This document shows, piece after piece, positions 31,546 to 52,851 of a DNA stretch of 64,000 bases. The stretch comes from Candidatus Omnitrophota bacterium (GTDB lineage Bacteria > Omnitrophota > Gorgyraeia > Gygaellales > Profunditerraquicolaceae): assembly GCA_041663665.1 (NCBI GenBank), contig JBAYMG010000001.1, positions 193,482-257,481 on the forward strand, in the 5' to 3' direction. Numbering within the stretch: the first letter of the stretch is position 1; every line of letters begins with the position of its first letter. A program made the position numbers and the translations under genes. The notes under the pieces were generated by a model. That model did not search any database. It had not been told where the DNA came from and was given only the letters and a program-made list of their open reading frames with translations.

Positions 31546-32652
31546 ATGATTTTACATGTTGATATGGATGCTTTTTTTGCTTCGATTGAACAGGCAATTA
31601 ATCCGCGGCTTAAGGATAAGCCTTTAATCGTTGGTTCACGCGGCAATAAAATGCACACTGTAGTTTGTGCGGCCAGTTACGCTGCCAAAGCTTTGGGTAT
31701 ATATTCCGGAATGCCTTCCAGGGAAGCATTTGCCAGATGTCCAAATTTAGAGTTTGTGGAAGCTGATCAATCTAAGTATATTTGGACTTCGGAGCAGATT
31801 TTTGAGCTTTTAAAAAGCTTTAATTTTCCCCTGAATTATGCCTCAATTGATGAGTTCCAAATGGACTTAGGTGCCCATGAAAACCCGGTAAGTTTGGGTA
31901 ACGAACTTCGAAAGCAGATCTATGCAGACTTTAACATTACTGCTTCAGTAGGCATTGCCAAGAATTGGCTTTTAGCAAAACTTGCTTCTAAGCTGAATAA
32001 ACCAGATGGCTTGGCTTTGATTAATGATGAAAATTTTGAGGCAGTTTTACGGAAGACTTCATTAGATGAATTATGCGGTATGGGCGGTAAAACCGGTCAA
32101 GTTTTTATTGCTCAGGGCTTAAAAACCTGCTGGGACTTATACCTAAACTTACCGGCTTTTTTTGATAATAATCCTAGTAAGTTTGATGAAAATCCCGGTA
32201 AGTCTAGTGAATTGCCTAAGTCGGTTAGTCATTCATATACTTTGCCAAAAGTTCAAATAAACCACCAGGTTATTCAGGCCTGGATTAGGCTTTTGGCTGA
32301 GATGGTTGGTACCAGGTTGCGGCAGCAAAATTTAGTTAGCGCAACTGTGCATCTTTGGTTAAATGGCCCGGAAATCGGTAATTTTGGAGCTCAGAAAACT
32401 TACCCAAATCAGGCCACAAATGATGGTTTCGAGATCTACCAGAGAGCTTCTAAGGTAATGGCTAGATTAGCCGCTAAAAATCCCAGAATTCGGGCAATTG
32501 GGGTTACCTGCAGCAGTCTTTCTTTAAGCGTCTATCAACCCTTGTTTAGTGAAGAAATCCGCAGGGAGGGCCTTATAAAGGCTTTAGACCGTATAAATAA
32601 CCGCTTCGGAGAGGGGTCAATTTATCCCGCAATAACTTCTTTTACCCGTTAA
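31546..32652 (+). CDS. dinB: DNA polymerase IV (Y-family translesion polymerase)
   Basis: ILHVDMDAFFASIEQ catalytic motif with Asp/Glu retained; 368 aa. Confidence 0.85.
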   Translation: MILHVDMDAFFASIEQAINPRLKDKPLIVGSRGNKMHTVVCAASYAAKALGIYSGMPSREAFARCPNLEFVEADQSKYIWTSEQIFELLKSFNFPLNYASIDEFQMDLGAHENPVSLGNELRKQIYADFNITASVGIAKNWLLAKLASKLNKPDGLALINDENFEAVLRKTSLDELCGMGGKTGQVFIAQGLKTCWDLYLNLPAFFDNNPSKFDENPGKSSELPKSVSHSYTLPKVQINHQVIQAWIRLLAEMVGTRLRQQNLVSATVHLWLNGPEIGNFGAQKTYPNQATNDGFEIYQRASKVMARLAAKNPRIRAIGVTCSSLSLSVYQPLFSEEIRREGLIKALDRINNRFGEGSIYPAITSFTR

Positions 32653-32754
32653 TAGTTAACAAAATCCCCGTAAAAAAATTTTTAATTAAAGGCAAAAAAT
32701 CTAGAGAAGATGGCGCATGTATTCCGCTTAAATTGTCAGGTATAAAATAACGCG

Positions 32755-32768
32755 GTAAGTTTAAGTAA
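32755..32768 (+). repeat. left arm of the 14-bp inverted repeat GTAAGTTTAAGTAA flanking dif
   Basis: Exact reverse-complement partner at 32928-32941. Confidence 0.7.
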
Positions 32769-32856
32769 AAAAGAAACGGCTTTTCCACAGCTTAAAAACA
32801 GGCTTTAGTAAAGTGTTATCTCCCATTGGTTTATGAACACTTAGCAAATACAGACA

Positions 32857-32884
32857 AGTTAACATAATGTACATTATAGGAAGT
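32857..32884 (-). other. dif: dif-like XerC/XerD chromosome dimer resolution site
   Basis: The reverse complement ACTTCCTATAATGTACATTATGTTAACT matches B. subtilis dif ACTTCCTAGAATATATATTATGTAAACT at 24 of 28 positions. Its XerD arm TTATGTTAACT matches E. coli TTATGTTAAAT at 10 of 11. It sits exactly at the convergent strand switch. Confidence 0.75.
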
Positions 32885-32927
32885 AGACTAAAAGGGCAAA
32901 ATAGACTAAAACTGCTCATGGTGCACT

Positions 32928-32941
32928 TACTTAAACTTACT
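32928..32941 (-). repeat. right arm of the inverted repeat (TTACTTAAACTTAC on +)
   Basis: Perfect 14-nt match to the revcomp of 32755-32768; abuts the stop codon of the DUF134 gene. Confidence 0.7.
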
Positions 32942-33301
32942 TCAATTTTTACTTGGTTTTGTGTTAGTTAAATTTATAGGATTTTGTTTTACATCCTGGC
33001 GGGAACTTAGTATATATTGGCCTCCTTGAATTCTTATGGCTGATCCGGTAGTTATCCCTTTAGCGATTAAACCTCTGGCTTTTTTTAAGATTCGGCTAAA
33101 GGTTTGTTGGGATATACGCATTGAGCTGGCTGCTTCTTTTTGGCTTAAATTTAAGCAATCGGCTAGCCTCAGGGCTTCAAATTCGTCCATTCTAAGCCCT
33201 ACTTCGTCTGGCCTGCCAGGCTTGCCTCTGGGGCTAAATTGGCTTATTTTAGGGTCAACTTTGACTATTCTATATTTCTTGGGTCTTCCGCGCGCTCGCA
33301 T
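32942..33301 (-). CDS. DUF134 (UPF0251) predicted DNA-binding protein
   Basis: RGRPKK...VKVDPKISQFSPRGKPG...LRMDEFEALRLADCLNLSQKEAASSMRISQQTFSRILKKAR...AIRIQGG fits the DUF134 pattern. Confidence 0.6.
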   Translation of the reverse strand: MRARGRPKKYRIVKVDPKISQFSPRGKPGRPDEVGLRMDEFEALRLADCLNLSQKEAASSMRISQQTFSRILKKARGLIAKGITTGSAIRIQGGQYILSSRQDVKQNPINLTNTKPSKN

Positions 33302-33312
33302 TAATTTTCCTC

Positions 33313-33387
33313 AAACTTACTTAAATTTAACGCCCAGGTTAATATGAGTACATACTCATAAGTAACATTTAAAAAGTATTTTGTCAA
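33313..33387 (-). promoter_or_regulatory. DUF134 upstream region: -35 TTGACA (revcomp of 33382-33387), palindrome ATGAGTACATACTCAT (33344-33359) and a third TTAAGTAAGTTT motif copy (33313-33328)
   Basis: All elements read directly from the sequence; the palindrome has 7-bp arms. Confidence 0.4.
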
Positions 33388-33402
33388 GCACAAAATCAGG
33401 GT

Positions 33403-46871: not shown

Positions 46872-47603
46872 TTATTCTCGACTTTGATTATTCAACGGTT
46901 TTAATGTTGAGATTATAGCAAAGACATTGTTTAGGTCAAGATAGCCCCCAATATCTTTTATGTAAACTTTGAAGAAATTTCCTTTTTGGTCAATGATGTT
47001 GCAATCAAAGTAATTATCCGGTTTAGCCAGTGTATAATTAATAAAACCTTGAGTTTGGTTTAGTTTGAATTTGATCATTTTGGCGATGTTCTGGTTTCCA
47101 ATGTCAGGAGTAAAAACGCTTTTCATGATTACAAAAAAGGCATCAGTAAGATTATTTATTTGATTAAAATTAGCATAGGTAAGATGGCGCATGAATTCAT
47201 AATTATCCATGATTCCTTGTTTTTGAACATCAGGATAAAGTTTGATAAATGTTTTTGGTTCCTGATAAAGAAGGAAGATGACGGCCTTATGATTAGCATG
47301 CCTTTTTTTATAGTAATCTTTTTTAATTAATTCCTGGATTATGTTAAAACGTTTTGGTACAGAAATCGACATTTTCGGGAAGGTGTACGGGACTAATGTT
47401 CCAAGGTATTCTTTATTAATCTCAGGTTCGAAAACATAGTCTTCCGGCTGGCGGCAGAGTATTGGGATACTTTTGCAGTCTCCAATACCATAAGTAATAT
47501 ATTGTTTTAAAATATTGGGCCCGGCAAGTTTAATTATCGGAATTAAACATAAACCAAGAATGAGTGTGTTAATTAAATATTTGAAAAATCGCTTAGGCGT
47601 CAT
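46872..47603 (-). CDS. membrane-anchored hypothetical protein
   Basis: Start moved to an internal Met to limit overlap with panB; one TM helix. Confidence 0.4.
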   Translation of the reverse strand: MTPKRFFKYLINTLILGLCLIPIIKLAGPNILKQYITYGIGDCKSIPILCRQPEDYVFEPEINKEYLGTLVPYTFPKMSISVPKRFNIIQELIKKDYYKKRHANHKAVIFLLYQEPKTFIKLYPDVQKQGIMDNYEFMRHLTYANFNQINNLTDAFFVIMKSVFTPDIGNQNIAKMIKFKLNQTQGFINYTLAKPDNYFDCNIIDQKGNFFKVYIKDIGGYLDLNNVFAIISTLKPLNNQSRE

Positions 47604-48417
47604 GTATCTTTTTAAACTCCTCTTCTTTAATAGTAAAGGAATGCTCCGGATCGGGAAATTTTCCTTGAACAACCTCATTTTTAAAATCTTGAACAGCTTT
47701 TAAAATTATCTCAGAAAGGTTAGTGTATTGTTTGACAAATTTGGGAGTGTAGCGTTCAAAGAGCCCGAGCATATCGTTTACGACCAGTACTTGTCCATCG
47801 CAATGAACTCCCGCTCCTATGCCTATGGTTGGAACTTTAAGTCTTTTAGTAATTAGTTCGGATATTTTGCTCGGGACACATTCCAAAAGAATAGCAAAGC
47901 AGCCCAATTTTTCTAAAATCAAGGCTTGGTCAATAAGCTTTTGGGCGGTTAGGGCGTCTTTGCCCTGTACTTTAAATCCTCCGATTTTATCTGCGGTCTG
48001 AGGAGTTAATCCGATATGGCCCATAACCGGTATACCTGAACTAATAATGTTTTTAGTTACTTCCGGGCAATTTGGGAACCATTCTAATTTTACTGCCTGG
48101 CAGCCGGCTTCCTTAATAAAACGTTTGGCATTTTTGACTGATTCTTGAGAGTTGATTTGATAAGAACTGTAGGGCATATCTGCGATTACTAGCGCGTTTT
48201 TTACCGCACGAGTTACCGCTTTGCTGTGGTGCAGCATCTCTTCGATTCCGATTTGAGTGGTAGATTCAAGGCCCAGCACGACATTGGCCAGGGAATCTCC
48301 GATAAGGATTATATCGATTCCTGCTTTATCCAGGATACTGGCTATAGGGTAATCGTAAGCCGTAAGTACGGTAATTTTACGCCTGCCTTTTAATTCCAAG
48401 ATATTTTTAGTATCCAT
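47593..48417 (-). CDS. panB: 3-methyl-2-oxobutanoate hydroxymethyltransferase
   Basis: KITVLTAYDYP...IILIGDSLANVVLG signature. Confidence 0.9.
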   Translation of the reverse strand: MDTKNILELKGRRKITVLTAYDYPIASILDKAGIDIILIGDSLANVVLGLESTTQIGIEEMLHHSKAVTRAVKNALVIADMPYSSYQINSQESVKNAKRFIKEAGCQAVKLEWFPNCPEVTKNIISSGIPVMGHIGLTPQTADKIGGFKVQGKDALTAQKLIDQALILEKLGCFAILLECVPSKISELITKRLKVPTIGIGAGVHCDGQVLVVNDMLGLFERYTPKFVKQYTNLSEIILKAVQDFKNEVVQGKFPDPEHSFTIKEEEFKKIHDA

Positions 48418-48424
48418 AAAATCC

Positions 48425-49690
48425 TTATTTGAAAAAGCGGTTGATTAAAGGAGAAATTATGAGCATTACAGTCAGGATTATGAGAATAACTGTAGTTGAC
48501 CAGCCGATAGTATTTTGAAAAGTATTGTTGGTATATTTGCCCATAATTTTTTTGTTATTAACCATAAAAATCATTGAGATTAAAACTACCGGTAGAAGCA
48601 TAGCATTAATAATCTGGCTCCAAATGGTTATGGCAATCAACGGGGCGTTGGGGATAAGTATAATAATTACGCTGATTAAAATAATAAAAGTAAATAAGGC
48701 ATAAAATTGTGGCGCTTCATTTAGTTTTTTATTTATCCCTGCCTCAAATCCAAAAGCTTCGCAAACATAGAAAGCAGTAGCTAACGGCAGAATTGTGGCA
48801 GAAAATACTGAGGCTACAAATAATCCAAATGCAAAAAGCTGGCTGGCAAAAACTCCGGCAAAAGGCTTAAGTGAAACAGCCGCATCTTTAGCTTCATTAA
48901 TGATAATGCCATTTTGGTGCAAAGTGGCTGCGCAGGCAACCATAATAAAAAATGCCACGACGATTGTTGCTACGCATCCGACAATTACGTCAGCTAAGAC
49001 GAATTTATAATCCTCTTTTTTGATTCCCTTTTCGATAACTGCCGACTGCATATAAAATTGCATCCAGGGGGCAATGGTTGTTCCAACTATACCTAAAACC
49101 ATCCCCAGGTAATCTTTGGTAAGATGCATTTGTGGTTTTATGAGAGAGGTGCCGATTTGGGCCCAGTCAGGTTTTGATAATAACGCTGATACGATATAGG
49201 ATAAAAGACAGAAACTAAAAAGCAAAAAAACTCTCTCGGCAATTTTGTAGTTTCCTTTAACTGCCAGTATCCATACACCGATAGCCACAAAAGGAACTGA
49301 GATATACTTACTAATTCCAAAGATATCCATACTTCCAGCTACTCCGGCGAACTCTGTAGCAGTATTGCCGATGTCAGCTATAACTAGCCCAAGAAAAATG
49401 AAAAAAGTAATTTTTAAGCCGAAATTTTCGCGGATTAAATCGGCCAGGCCTTTGCCGGTGATAATCCCCATTCTGGCGTTCATTTCTTGTACGACAGTTA
49501 AAATTATAAAAGACGGAATTAATGTCCATAAAAGTTTATATCCATAAACTGCCCCGGCCACTGAGTAAGTGGTGATACCTCCGGCATCATTATCTACGCT
49601 TCCGGTAACTATTCCCGGACCCAAGATGCTGATAAAGATAATTAAGTTTCTAATTGTCGGGTTATCTTTTAATTTTTCAATGAATTTCAT
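48425..49690 (-). CDS. NRAMP-family divalent metal cation transporter
   Basis: GPGIVTGSVDNDAGGITTYS N-terminal Nramp motif; 11 to 12 TM segments. Confidence 0.85.
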   Translation of the reverse strand: MKFIEKLKDNPTIRNLIIFISILGPGIVTGSVDNDAGGITTYSVAGAVYGYKLLWTLIPSFIILTVVQEMNARMGIITGKGLADLIRENFGLKITFFIFLGLVIADIGNTATEFAGVAGSMDIFGISKYISVPFVAIGVWILAVKGNYKIAERVFLLFSFCLLSYIVSALLSKPDWAQIGTSLIKPQMHLTKDYLGMVLGIVGTTIAPWMQFYMQSAVIEKGIKKEDYKFVLADVIVGCVATIVVAFFIMVACAATLHQNGIIINEAKDAAVSLKPFAGVFASQLFAFGLFVASVFSATILPLATAFYVCEAFGFEAGINKKLNEAPQFYALFTFIILISVIIILIPNAPLIAITIWSQIINAMLLPVVLISMIFMVNNKKIMGKYTNNTFQNTIGWSTTVILIILTVMLIISPLINRFFK

Positions 49691-50979
49691 TTAATTTCCT
49701 CTGATTCTTGTTTCATGGGGTCAAATACCGCTTCAAAAGCGTCTTTGATAGTGATGATTCCTTGAACCTTCCCTAATTTGTCGACAACCGGAACAACTGT
49801 GAAATCATATTTGTAGAAAATCTCAGCGACATCTTTAAGTTTAGTGTCAATTTTAACTTTAGCAATTCTTTTACGCATAAAATCTGAAATTATTTTTTCG
49901 GGGGCGACCATTAATAGCTGTTGCAGGGTTATTACTCCAACCAGAGTATCGTTTTCATCGGTAACATAAATATAATAAATCGATTCTTTTTTACGCGTTC
50001 CTTTTTTTATTTTTTCTAAGACAGAACTTGCGGTTTCTGTCTGGCGGGCAGCAACAAATTCAGTGTTCATAATGCTGCCGGCAATATTTTGGGCGTGCCC
50101 AAGCAAGCTTGAAATTTGGGTTACTTTTTCCGGTGGAAGTTTAAGAAAAATAGAATTAATTTTCTTTTTAGTTAATTGCGAGAGGAGATCCGCTACCTCA
50201 TCCATCGGCATTTCATTAATCAGATCTAAAAGCAATTTTTGATCAATGGATTCAGCAATTTGTACACGGTTTTTTAATGGCAGTTCCTGGAATGTCCCTG
50301 CTGCTGTGGACGGATCTAAAGACCTTAATATAGTTATTCTTTCGTCAATGCTTAAATCATTTAAAATGTCGGCTAAGTCAGCCGGATGCAGTTCTGCTAA
50401 TTTTGAATGATGTATTTTTAGCGCAAGCGTTTCTTGGCCGATAGCATTAGTTACCGGTTGAACTGATTTCCAGGTAATCAGACGGTCTTCCATTTCGCAG
50501 GAAGAAAGTAATTTTACAAAAAATTGCACAAATTTTAAACATCCTAAACGGCGTAATATACCGGTAAAGCCGATGTCCATATGGACTACCCAGAGGCCCA
50601 GGCCTTCTTTAAGCAGGTGCAAATCGTTAACCCGGACAACTTTTGAACCATAAACATCGACAATTTGTTTATCCCAAAATGTTTCTTTAAGCGGAATATC
50701 GCCATTGATTGGGCCAAGATATTCACTAAAAGAGGCAGGTGTATTCTCAATAAAAATACCCTTCTCTTCGACCAGGATTTTTACGAATTTCCAGGGGATA
50801 TAAAATTTTTTACCTGATTTCCGGTCACGCATAATCAAGGCATTGACCTTAGGGTACATCTCTTTCATGGTTGCGGATAAATCAATTAACCGGCCGATTT
50901 TTTTGCCGGTTGCTGAATCGATTATCGGCAGTTTAATTATTTCGATTAAAAATATGAATTTTTTAACTACGGGGTTCAT
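49687..50979 (-). CDS. soluble PRC-barrel x2 / MgtE-N / CBS-pair protein (MgtE cytoplasmic regulatory module without the pore)
   Basis: IIDSATGKKIGRLIDL PRC-barrel pattern; central MgtE_N-like helical region; CBS pair; no TM domain; 4-nt ATGA overlap with the NRAMP gene. Confidence 0.65.
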   Translation of the reverse strand: MNPVVKKFIFLIEIIKLPIIDSATGKKIGRLIDLSATMKEMYPKVNALIMRDRKSGKKFYIPWKFVKILVEEKGIFIENTPASFSEYLGPINGDIPLKETFWDKQIVDVYGSKVVRVNDLHLLKEGLGLWVVHMDIGFTGILRRLGCLKFVQFFVKLLSSCEMEDRLITWKSVQPVTNAIGQETLALKIHHSKLAELHPADLADILNDLSIDERITILRSLDPSTAAGTFQELPLKNRVQIAESIDQKLLLDLINEMPMDEVADLLSQLTKKKINSIFLKLPPEKVTQISSLLGHAQNIAGSIMNTEFVAARQTETASSVLEKIKKGTRKKESIYYIYVTDENDTLVGVITLQQLLMVAPEKIISDFMRKRIAKVKIDTKLKDVAEIFYKYDFTVVPVVDKLGKVQGIITIKDAFEAVFDPMKQESEEIK

Positions 50980-51921: not shown

Positions 51922-52851
51922 TTAAGAAGTTGTCAGCTTATAATTTGATTCGATTGCATTGACTAAATCAAGCAGGAATTTATTAGTGGGTACTTCAATT
52001 CCTAGTTCTTGCCCAAGGCGGACAATTACTCCGTTAATAAAATCAACTTCAGTGCGTTTTTTTTTCAAGACATCTTGGAGCATTGAAGAAAGATTGCCGG
52101 AGGTGCTTTCGCAGACTGCTTCAACTTTAGCCAGCGGATCATCGAAAGTTAACTTAATACGTTTCTTTTTAGCAATCCGTGTAGCCTCGGTAACGGCGTT
52201 TCTTAAAATTCTTTTTGTACCTTCGAATTGTATAAGTTTACCGTTAGGTAGGCGGGTAATTGCGCTTAGGGCATTGATACCGACATTAATAATTAATTTT
52301 GACCAGATCAGGCTTTTTATATCCCGGGTCATTTTAGTTTCAAATCCTGCTTTATTGAAGGCTTCGCGGATTGCGCGTATCTCAACCGGAGTCTTTCCGC
52401 CGATTGCACCGATAATAGTCTCTCCTTTTCCGGCATGGCGGATTTTTCCCAAGTCAATTAAAGTTGAGCCTTCATTGGTTACTCCGCCGATTACCCGGTC
52501 TTCGCCAGCAATTTCAGCAATAATCTCCAGGTTCCCTACTCCGTTTTGTAAAGTTAAAATTTTAGTATGTGTAGTTAATAAAGGTTTAATCTGTTCAATG
52601 GCTGTTTTAGTGTCAAATGATTTTACACAGACAATTATCAAATCTGTTTTCCCAATGTCCTGGACACTGGATGTAACTTTTACCTTCACCTGAAAGGTAT
52701 TCGATGTTCCTTCGACAGAAATTCCTGATTCATTAAGCTTAGAAGCATTTTCTTTGGATTTATCTAAGAGCCAAACGTCTTCTTTAGATTTTGTTAAAAA
52801 AGCGGCAAAAAGGCATCCTATTGCTCCTGAACCGACAATAGCAATTTTCAT
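51922..52851 (-). CDS. panE: 2-dehydropantoate 2-reductase
   Basis: MKIAIVGSGAIGCLFAAFL Rossmann N-terminus; ApbA C-terminal domain. Confidence 0.8.
   Translation of the reverse strand: MKIAIVGSGAIGCLFAAFLTKSKEDVWLLDKSKENASKLNESGISVEGTSNTFQVKVKVTSSVQDIGKTDLIIVCVKSFDTKTAIEQIKPLLTTHTKILTLQNGVGNLEIIAEIAGEDRVIGGVTNEGSTLIDLGKIRHAGKGETIIGAIGGKTPVEIRAIREAFNKAGFETKMTRDIKSLIWSKLIINVGINALSAITRLPNGKLIQFEGTKRILRNAVTEATRIAKKKRIKLTFDDPLAKVEAVCESTSGNLSSMLQDVLKKKRTEVDFINGVIVRLGQELGIEVPTNKFLLDLVNAIESNYKLTTS

Follow-up and report, generated by a model that had tools for sequence, protein, structure and literature searches.

A soluble MgtE-like protein gene coupled to an NRMT-type SLC11/NRAMP transporter gene in Candidatus Omnitrophota: a candidate magnesium uptake module

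The stretch of DNA analysed here, called the window below, comprises 64,000 nucleotides from a Candidatus Omnitrophota bacterium (assembly GCA_041663665.1, contig JBAYMG010000001.1). Two neighbouring open reading frames on its minus strand encode a soluble protein and a transporter (Table 1). The TGA of the soluble protein gene (49689-49687) overlaps the ATG of the transporter gene (49690-49688) as ATGA, and a GAGGA motif resembling a Shine-Dalgarno sequence (49697-49701) lies 6 nt before this ATG, within the last codons of the soluble protein gene. A sequence-only reading of the locus had already described the stop/start overlap with an NRAMP-family gene as well as a 430-aa product with the MgtE N-domain, tandem CBS domains and no pore; the ATGA at 49687-49690 was confirmed, and Pfam agrees on the domains.

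The pair is embedded in a long single-strand run of tightly packed housekeeping genes, and consensus matches for a promoter or terminator of its own were no commoner than in shuffled sequence. A functional link to the neighbours ApbE, PanB, PanE, RecO and YbeY was rejected, because these are kept mainly in close Omnitrophota relatives, as expected for ordinary synteny. Control of the pair by an M-box riboswitch was rejected as well, since none was found at Rfam gathering thresholds in the window, where only a tRNA matched, or in 16 related loci. An unrelated cobalamin riboswitch was the other Rfam match in these scans.

Table 1. Features of the gene pair, in positions of the window
Feature	Position	Strand	Description and basis
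Soluble protein gene	49687..50979	-	430 aa; tandem PRC-barrel module, MgtE_N, CBS pair, no transmembrane pore; open reading frame and Pfam
PRC-barrel repeat 1	50740..50967	-	residues about 5-80; Pfam PF05239 as fragment, all-beta in AF2 models
PRC-like repeat 2	50455..50697	-	residues about 95-175, inserted helical hairpin; weak hhalign likeness to repeat 1
MgtE_N helical domain	50092..50391	-	residues 197-296; Pfam E 7.6e-22; contains D260, D264
CBS pair	49720..50082	-	residues about 300-420; Pfam CBS x2 E 2.7e-20; contains D392, D413, E416
Coupling junction	49687..49701	-	GAGGA Shine-Dalgarno-like motif, then ATGA stop/start overlap; sequence reading
NRMT-clade SLC11/NRAMP transporter gene	48425..49690	-	421 aa; Pfam Nramp E 4.6e-95; EleNRMT 7qia best PDB match
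Helix 1 motif D35-A-G-G38	49577..49588	-	DxxG replacing DPGN; alignment to EleNRMT D55/G58
Helix 6 motif T204-T-I-A207-P-W209	49064..49081	-	TxxA, Trp replacing coupling His; alignment to EleNRMT T224/A227/W229

The transporter covers profile positions 1-356 of 357 of the Pfam family Nramp (PF01566). A phmmer search of the PDB returned EleNRMT (7qia) with an E-value of 1.2e-110, as compared to 2.9e-27 for the best MntH structure, and the score against the MntH subfamily model of NCBIfam (151.7 bits) stayed under the cut-off of 430. Identity to EleNRMT is about 47% over 306 aligned residues. Residues D35, G38, E113, T204, A207, W209 and Q359 correspond to and are identical with D55, G58, E133, T224, A227, W229 and Q379 of EleNRMT. 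The transporter carries the NRMT signature (PMC8806188), with DxxG in helix 1 instead of DxxN and, as the clade's TxxA/T motif in helix 6, TxxA instead of A/CxxM. Both proton-coupling histidines of helix 6b are absent, with W209 and M214 (N234 in EleNRMT) in their places. These features are shared by NRMTs encoded next to related soluble proteins, with DNDAGGIT present in 59 of 62 and GTT[IV]APWMQFY in 57 of 62. The sequence-only reading had set a Mn-type site (DPGN/MPH) against the altered site of Mg-transporting relatives, and it is the altered, Mg-type site (DxxG/TxxA, His replaced by Trp) that is found here. Its sequence places the transporter in the NRMT clade of the SLC11/NRAMP family, whose member EleNRMT was reported to transport Mg2+ and Mn2+ in an uncoupled manner (PMC8806188).

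The soluble protein contains a MgtE cytosolic domain, by sequence and by predicted fold. MgtE_N and two CBS domains were matched by Pfam, with no match to the MgtE transmembrane domain (PF01769); along the NCBIfam mgtE model (TIGR00400) it covers profile positions 24-251 of 450 with 154.8 bits, below the cut-off of 232.75. The chain ends about 10 residues past CBS2 and keeps no more of the plug helix than a stub. In the PDB, the cytosolic domain of Thermus thermophilus MgtE (TtMgtE, 2yvy) was matched by phmmer with an E-value of 7e-34, and Foldseek placed the AF2 model of the protein (pLDDT 79.5) on solved MgtE cytosolic domains with TMt values of 0.77-0.86.

With the regulatory site assignments taken from PMC5882242, alignment to TtMgtE shows that acidic residues are kept at three Mg2+ sites: at Mg4 by D260 and D413 (TtMgtE D91 and D247), at Mg5 by D392 and E416 (D226 and D250) and at Mg6 by D264 (D95). 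D264 is present in all 79 family members compared and D260 in 57 of these. Positions 260 and 413 covary across the family (D/D in 57, S/S in 13, A/H in 3), and this joint change is what would be expected for two residues working together. The S/S pair is found in a Desulfobacterota clade, and binding at Mg4 is therefore not a family-wide property. Of the other sites, the Mg7 ligand (TtMgtE E59) is replaced by glycine (G228), and the plug-helix sites Mg2 and Mg3 are approximated only by the acidic tail Q424/E425. As this tail overlaps the Shine-Dalgarno motif of the downstream gene, its conservation may reflect constraint at the nucleotide level.

Two PRC barrels had been proposed for the N-terminal part, and the first of these is supported by Pfam as a fragment, while the second gave no Pfam match. 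Repeat 1 scored 19.8 bits against PF05239 in the whole protein, below the gathering score of 21.2; a scan restricted to residues 1-95 gave 25.2 bits (E 1.7e-5). The likeness of repeat 2 to repeat 1 in hhalign was weak (probability 24%, E 8.5e-4) and centred on a PV.D..G.K.G.v.D motif. No other part of the family is as strongly conserved as repeat 2 (FWDKQIVD...VRVNDLHLL), which has many invariant columns. An AF2 model of residues 1-190 (pLDDT 82, pTM 0.76) could be superposed from end to end on the paired PRC barrels of CdpB1:CdpB2 (8qzo; TM 0.53-0.66, 194-203 aligned columns). Foldseek also returned H subunits of reaction centres (rmsd 1.3-2.5 A, about 65 columns), RimM and the stand-alone PRC-barrel protein 3htr. 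A tandem PRC-barrel fold is predicted for residues 1-190 by this model, and the two proposed barrels are mostly confirmed. In a literature search, no paper was found that mentions PRC barrels together with MgtE. Soluble relatives devoid of the PRC module were rejected as a separate architecture: the five short matches looked up (253-293 aa) are truncated gene calls, each starting no more than about 50 nt from the edge of its contig, and four can be aligned upstream into the PRC-like repeat, the fifth being cut at the contig start.

The same module also occurs on channels. The long relatives of the soluble protein are fusions to the MgtE pore, in which PRC, MgtE_N and CBS domains precede the pore in proteins of about 600 aa (P0145, P0161 and P0187), and this fusion argues for a genuine transporter-regulating cassette.

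For the neighbourhood of the gene, 190 relatives of the soluble protein were collected from GTDB species genomes and 80 loci were kept for counting. An NRMT gene lay downstream on the same strand in 70 of the 80, across at least ten phyla, and adjoined the soluble protein gene in about 96% of the loci with adequate flank; only three loci had 4 kb of flank yet no NRMT (L056, L070 and L078). Among 59 loci where the spacing could be measured, 35 had the two genes overlapping (-4 or -1) or separated by 0-5 nt. The same gene order was seen on five further metagenome contigs. Since it recurs in this many unrelated genome loci, the pairing is far beyond chance. The pair is thus kept across many phyla and is not confined to this genome, and the soluble protein gene is nearly always found beside an NRMT rather than beside a MgtE pore, two points on which the sequence-only reading had made itself dependent. 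No full-length MgtE pore was found elsewhere in the window nor beside the soluble protein gene in the related loci. Sequence distances of the soluble proteins and of the NRMTs correlate across loci (Pearson 0.75); however, any two neighbouring genes that are inherited together would be expected to stay adjacent and to diverge in a correlated way. Natural fusions to NRAMP (about 850 aa) were sought as Rosetta-stone evidence, and none occurred among the top 150 representatives.

Conserved adjacency might also mean that the two proteins are merely co-expressed and never touch, the soluble protein being an independent sensor of Mg2+ or adenine nucleotides that acts elsewhere via its PRC barrels. 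In other proteins, such as RimM and CdpB, barrels of this kind bind ribosomal or division proteins, and the N-terminal module resembles just these protein-protein adaptors, namely RimM and the CdpB1:CdpB2 pair. In addition, at three loci no NRMT lies within 4 kb of the soluble protein gene, and one cluster of soluble proteins has partners from two NRMT subtypes. We nevertheless regard this explanation as quite improbable, in view of the near-constant NRMT neighbour with its frequent stop/start overlap and the covalent attachment of the module to the pore in PRC-MgtE proteins. At a further locus (L068), where the two genes stand apart, the cause is an IS200-like transposase that has inserted, together with a helicase.

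The sequence-only reading had called a separate MgtE-like subunit a new regulatory arrangement, which was wrong. [quoted passage not shown] The window pair is a fresh example of this published arrangement. Twelve years after this first notice, no test of the MgtE-type partner and no demonstrated interaction or regulation between partner and NRMT was found in the searchable literature.

The data of that study bear on the transported ion. The NrmT of A. capsulatum, which has a MgtE-like neighbour, gave full rescue of a Mn2+-transport mutant, whereas millimolar Mg2+ was required for it to rescue a Mg2+ mutant; M-boxes are frequent upstream of NrmT genes but not required, and the A. capsulatum example has no riboswitch (PMC4072509). 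With a partnered NrmT that behaved mainly as a Mn2+ transporter, the ion sensed and transported here may not be Mg2+. The carrier might hence mainly import Mn2+ and its partner sense Mn2+, and the capacity of EleNRMT to carry Mn2+ too (PMC8806188) and the lack of an M-box in the window and its 16 relatives would suit such a manganese module. We consider it unlikely, because the carrier has the same binding site as the Mg2+-transporting EleNRMT, it lacks the soft methionine ligand that is typical of NRAMPs for transition metals, and the partner keeps sites that bind Mg2+ in MgtE (PMC5882242).

Shin et al. also raised the chaperone alternative (PMC4072509), in which the soluble protein would aid the carrier and not gate it, either as a metal chaperone or buffer that receives the hydrated ion at the inner vestibule or as an activator or stabiliser at low metal. 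Conserved adjacency and coupling fit this explanation equally, and so do the acidic metal sites retained in the partner. Against it, the NrmT proteins Ca_c0685 and Ca_c3329 as well as EleNRMT transport without a partner, co-expression of the A. capsulatum pair (Acp2976/Acp2977) gave no added rescue (PMC4072509), and the homologous module of MgtE shuts its channel on binding Mg2+ (PMC5882242). An aiding role appears distinctly improbable on this balance. Rather, a transporter that works alone and is rescued no better with its partner points to a regulator and not to an essential subunit (PMC4072509).

Both protein identities, the site residues, the conserved pairing and the coupling are established. 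As to function, we give an even chance to a two-gene Mg uptake module in which the soluble MgtE-like protein exerts Mg2+ feedback on the NRMT carrier. By homology to EleNRMT, the carrier would import Mg2+ in hydrated form, and Mn2+ as well, with the membrane potential as driving force and no proton coupling. The upstream gene would supply everything that regulates a PRC-bearing MgtE channel from the cytoplasm, minus the pore, and both proteins would be made together via the stop/start overlap and the internal Shine-Dalgarno motif. Like MgtE, the soluble protein presumably dimerises through its CBS pairs, and cytoplasmic Mg2+ could bind the acidic sites between the N and CBS domains (D260/D413, D392/E416 and D264). 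The compact Mg-bound state may then dock against the carrier from the cytoplasmic side and slow or block uptake, although both the contact and the direction of regulation are conjectural, and the tandem PRC barrels might provide a further module for interaction or oligomerisation. As an outcome, an uncoupled carrier would gain the kind of negative feedback that is inherent in MgtE. NRAMP carriers are monomers, whereas the cytosolic domain of MgtE is a dimer joined to its own pore via the plug helix. How a dimeric MgtE domain would act on a monomeric LeuT-fold carrier is not obvious.

A wider generalisation is less probable: PRC-PRC-MgtE_N-CBS2 might be a portable Mg-sensing cassette for two unrelated transporter folds, used in cis on the MgtE pore and as a separate subunit on the LeuT-fold NRMT, with the tandem PRC barrels as the element for docking or oligomerisation that would allow a separate subunit to regulate.

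Import of Mg2+ by an NRMT with no proton coupling would be driven by the membrane potential alone, so that a brake is needed, a role for which the conserved MgtE-type partner is the evident choice. For work on this question, the window offers a compact, translationally coupled pair with candidate sensor residues (D260/D413, D264 and D392/E416), the natural S/S clade is available for comparison, and the full-length PRC-MgtE proteins provide a one-chain reference for module plus pore. If the partner gates the NRMT, the pair would clearly exemplify how a single sensor module can be put to use again on transporters of unrelated fold.

Among known systems, the closest are the pairs of NrmT and MgtE-like fragment described by Shin et al., i.e., the Ca_c0685 operon of C. 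acetobutylicum and Acp2976/Acp2977, in which the fragment gene likewise lies immediately upstream, is co-transcribed with the carrier and has the same proposed role in cytoplasmic feedback regulation. The window pair differs in the lack of an M-box, here and in the sampled relatives, and in its lineage and setting, an Omnitrophota genome and a run of housekeeping genes. Compared by description only, the partner differs too, as it is 430 aa long, about 190 aa of which form the N-terminal tandem PRC barrels, whereas the protein of Shin et al. was called small and PRC barrels went unmentioned. EleNRMT from Eggerthella lenta (PDB 7QIA; Ramanadane et al. 2022, PMC8806188) resembles the carrier in overall identity and in the site residues, including the helix-3 Glu and the helix-10 Gln, but was studied alone, and a partner protein is not discussed in that paper. 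T. thermophilus MgtE (2yvx, 2yvy) shares the N domain and CBS pair at the TM values given above and the ligands of Mg4, Mg5 and Mg6, whereas the window protein has no transmembrane domain, retains only the plug-helix stub, has lost the Mg7 ligand and has gained PRC barrels. The PRC-MgtE channels contain the same PRC, PRC-like, MgtE_N and CBSx2 modules, with 34% identity to the window protein over residues 9-428; they differ in that module and MgtE pore form one polypeptide, and L082, the single case inspected, has no NRAMP neighbour. What the present analysis adds to the published arrangement is the undescribed PRC extension, its occurrence on full-length MgtE channels (about 600 aa) and the lack of an M-box riboswitch at this pair.

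The soluble protein and the transporter lie head to tail, the soluble protein gene upstream, and share four nucleotides (table); both open reading frames, the ATGA junction and most of the domain content of the sequence-only reading were confirmed. The parts are securely identified. The best database match came from a Candidatus Omnitrophota MAG and was an identical protein. The Shine-Dalgarno-like motif of the transporter gene coincides with codons E427-E428 of the conserved acidic C-terminal tail of the soluble protein. Conservation of this tail may partly reflect a nucleotide-level constraint rather than a plug-helix remnant and, because of the overlap, was given little weight.

Positions of the features discussed (L prefixes denote genome loci with relatives of the soluble protein, all others the window)
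Feature	Position	Strand	Remark
Soluble protein gene	49687..50979	(-)	ORF, 430 aa
NRMT gene	48425..49690	(-)	ORF, 421 aa
ATGA	49687-49690		soluble gene TGA and NRMT gene ATG
GAGGA motif, NRMT gene	49697-49701	(-)	6 nt 5' of ATG, within last codons of soluble gene
PanB/PanE homologues	47593-48417, 51922-52851		
Orientation and GC-skew switch	~32650-33400		
IS200-like transposase and DEAD-box helicase	L068:5335-7192		between soluble gene and NRMT
Cobalamin riboswitch	L010:8831-9046		59 bits
PRC-MgtE proteins P0145, P0161, P0187	L082:4001-5818 (P0187)		~600 aa

The transporter carries an Nramp domain (Pfam, E 4.6e-95). In a search against all PDB sequences its best match was EleNRMT of Eggerthella lenta (7qia, E 1.2e-110; ~47% identity over 306 aligned residues), and canonical MntH followed at ~1e-27 or weaker. 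EleNRMT is a structurally characterised NRAMP-related Mg2+ transporter whose Mg2+ and Mn2+ transport is proton-uncoupled, and the DxxG and TxxA motifs were defined in the same work (Ramanadane et al. 2022, PMC8806188). All clade-defining residues equal those of EleNRMT, namely D35/G38 (DxxG), T204/A207 (TxxA), W209, which stands where the coupling His would be, E113 and Q359. The metal site is thus clearly of the altered Mg type and not of the Mn-type DPGN/MPH kind, placing the protein in the NRMT clade.

Pfam places MgtE_N (E 7.6e-22) at residues 197-296 of the soluble protein, together with two CBS domains (E 2.7e-20), and finds no MgtE membrane domain. The NCBIfam mgtE model was covered in its cytoplasmic part only (positions 24-251 of 450), with a score below the model cut-off. 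Residues 192-417 align with the cytosolic domain of Thermus thermophilus MgtE (E 7e-34), and the AF2 model (pLDDT 79.5) matches the cytosolic domains of solved MgtE structures at TM 0.77-0.86. Regulatory sites in the T. thermophilus channel are formed by D91/D247 (Mg4), D226/D250 (Mg5), D95 (Mg6) and E59 (Mg7) (Maruyama et al. 2018, PMC5882242). By alignment, these correspond to D260/D413, D392/E416, D264 and a Gly, respectively, and the plug-helix sites are reduced to the acidic tail. Among 79 family members D264 is invariant and the Mg4 pair covaries (D/D in 57, S/S in 13, A/H in 3), a joint change as two cooperating residues would show.

The N-terminal region was proposed to hold two PRC-barrel-like repeats, which is a reasonable reading. 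In the whole protein, the PRC match at residues 9-80 stays below the Pfam threshold; repeat 1 scanned alone reaches 25.2 bits (threshold 21.2). Repeat 2, which contains a helical insertion, lacks a Pfam match and resembles repeat 1 only weakly at the profile level. The predicted model of residues 1-190 (AF2, pLDDT 82, pTM 0.76) aligns over its full length with CdpB1:CdpB2 (8qzo, TM 0.53-0.66) and also resembles reaction-centre H subunits, a stand-alone PRC-barrel protein and RimM. Judged from the 8qzo target lengths (167, 168 and 150), two barrels per target would fit, considering which residues the preprint lists as built. Essentially all close relatives carry this tandem extension. A full search with the MgtE-like part as query, covering 1.84 billion representatives, retrieved ~600-aa proteins combining PRC, MgtE_N, two CBS domains and the MgtE pore, so the soluble protein is best described as a PRC-MgtE without the pore. 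Three of them (P0145, P0161, P0187) are full-length channels sharing the N-terminal extension, with 34% identity over residues 9-428. No NRAMP fusions occurred among the top 150 matches. A PRC extension common to a subset of MgtE channels is a modest new detail; the searchable literature contains no paper connecting PRC barrels to MgtE.

GTDB was scanned at one genome per species. Among the 190 relatives detected, 80 loci were retained, and these span Omnitrophota, Elusimicrobiota, Spirochaetota, Chlorobiaceae/Ignavibacteriota, Goldbacteria, Rokubacteria, Myxococcota, Planctomycetota, Desulfobacterota, Binatia and Alphaproteobacteria. A same-strand NRMT homologue follows the soluble gene at 70 of the 80 loci, so the pair is conserved well beyond a single genome. 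Seven of the other ten end too early for its presence to be judged, and only L056, L070 and L078 have none within 4 kb of flank. At 35 of 59 measurable loci the two genes share 4 or 1 nt or are separated by 0-5 nt, and five additional metagenome contigs show the same order. The partner NRMTs contain DNDAGGIT (59/62) and GTT[IV]APWMQFY (57/62). No MgtE pore gene adjoins the soluble gene in related loci or occurs anywhere in the window. With this conservation, the Mg-type site and no neighbouring pore gene, nothing that the sequence-only reading had named as contrary to it was found.

Soluble gene and NRMT are apart in an Alphaproteobacteria-labelled clade with A/H at the Mg4 pair (L068; also L056, L073), in L068 through inserted genes. 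In Syntrophaceae-type loci (L046, L057, L065, L067, L069; S/S) the genes do not overlap and are separated by 157-262 nt, and no Rfam family reached gathering thresholds in L046, L057, L065 or L069. One soluble-protein cluster pairs with two NRMT subtypes, ~70-87% versus ~50% identical to the window NRMT (L013, L018, L022-L024, L027, L028, L030, L033 and L040 compared with L001-L012, L016, L019, L021, L025 and others), a pattern suggestive of exchanged partners or of an old duplication of the NRMT inside the module.

The pair belongs to a dense run of housekeeping genes on a single strand (YbeY, RecO, PanE, ApbE, pair, PanB), a synteny largely confined to close relatives, and no promoter or terminator signals for it rose above background. 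PanB/PanE homologues border the pair in Omnitrophota as well as in distant Syntrophaceae/Desulfobacterota loci (L046, L065, L067, L069, L080); ApbE, RecO and YbeY neighbours occur in close relatives only, except for one ApbE match in L014 (Auribacterota). At gathering thresholds, Rfam revealed no M-box riboswitch in either the window or the 16 relatives sampled; one Omnitrophota MAG (L010) has a cobalamin riboswitch ~2 kb downstream of its pair, which is unrelated to the present observation. Elsewhere in the window, genes switch convergently from all plus (1-32.6 kb) to all minus (33.4-63.4 kb) and GC skew falls from +0.15 to +0.28 down to ~0, which could mark a replication-terminus-like or rearrangement boundary.

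The favoured interpretation, held with evenly balanced confidence, is that an uncoupled NRMT carrier would be gated by negative feedback from a Mg2+-sensing partner whose production is matched to that of the carrier; Mg2+ binding, contact between the two and the direction of regulation are what we infer from the pair. This reading is plausible and was already proposed in print: the proposed new regulatory arrangement is not new, since exactly this pairing of NrmT with an adjacent MgtE-like gene was described by Shin et al. 2014 (PLoS Genet 10:e1004429, PMC4072509). They found a gene for an MgtE N-terminal cytoplasmic domain homologue beside most NrmT genes and speculated on a role in feedback regulation from the cytoplasm or as a metal chaperone. 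In that study, NrmT transporters functioned without the partner and co-expression of the Acidobacterium capsulatum pair did not improve rescue. Rival roles for the partner are a chaperone or activator of the carrier and an independent regulator without carrier contact. Mn2+ as the relevant ion is a further rival, supported by the A. capsulatum NrmT, which behaved mainly as a Mn2+ transporter; the Mg-type site of the window protein speaks against it. Later work on the partner was not found in the searchable literature, and the 2022 EleNRMT paper (PMC8806188) does not discuss it. Compared with the NrmT/MgtE-fragment pairs of Shin et al., the window pair has the same arrangement and differs in having no M-box riboswitch and in the tandem PRC extension of its partner, a feature without mention in that study.
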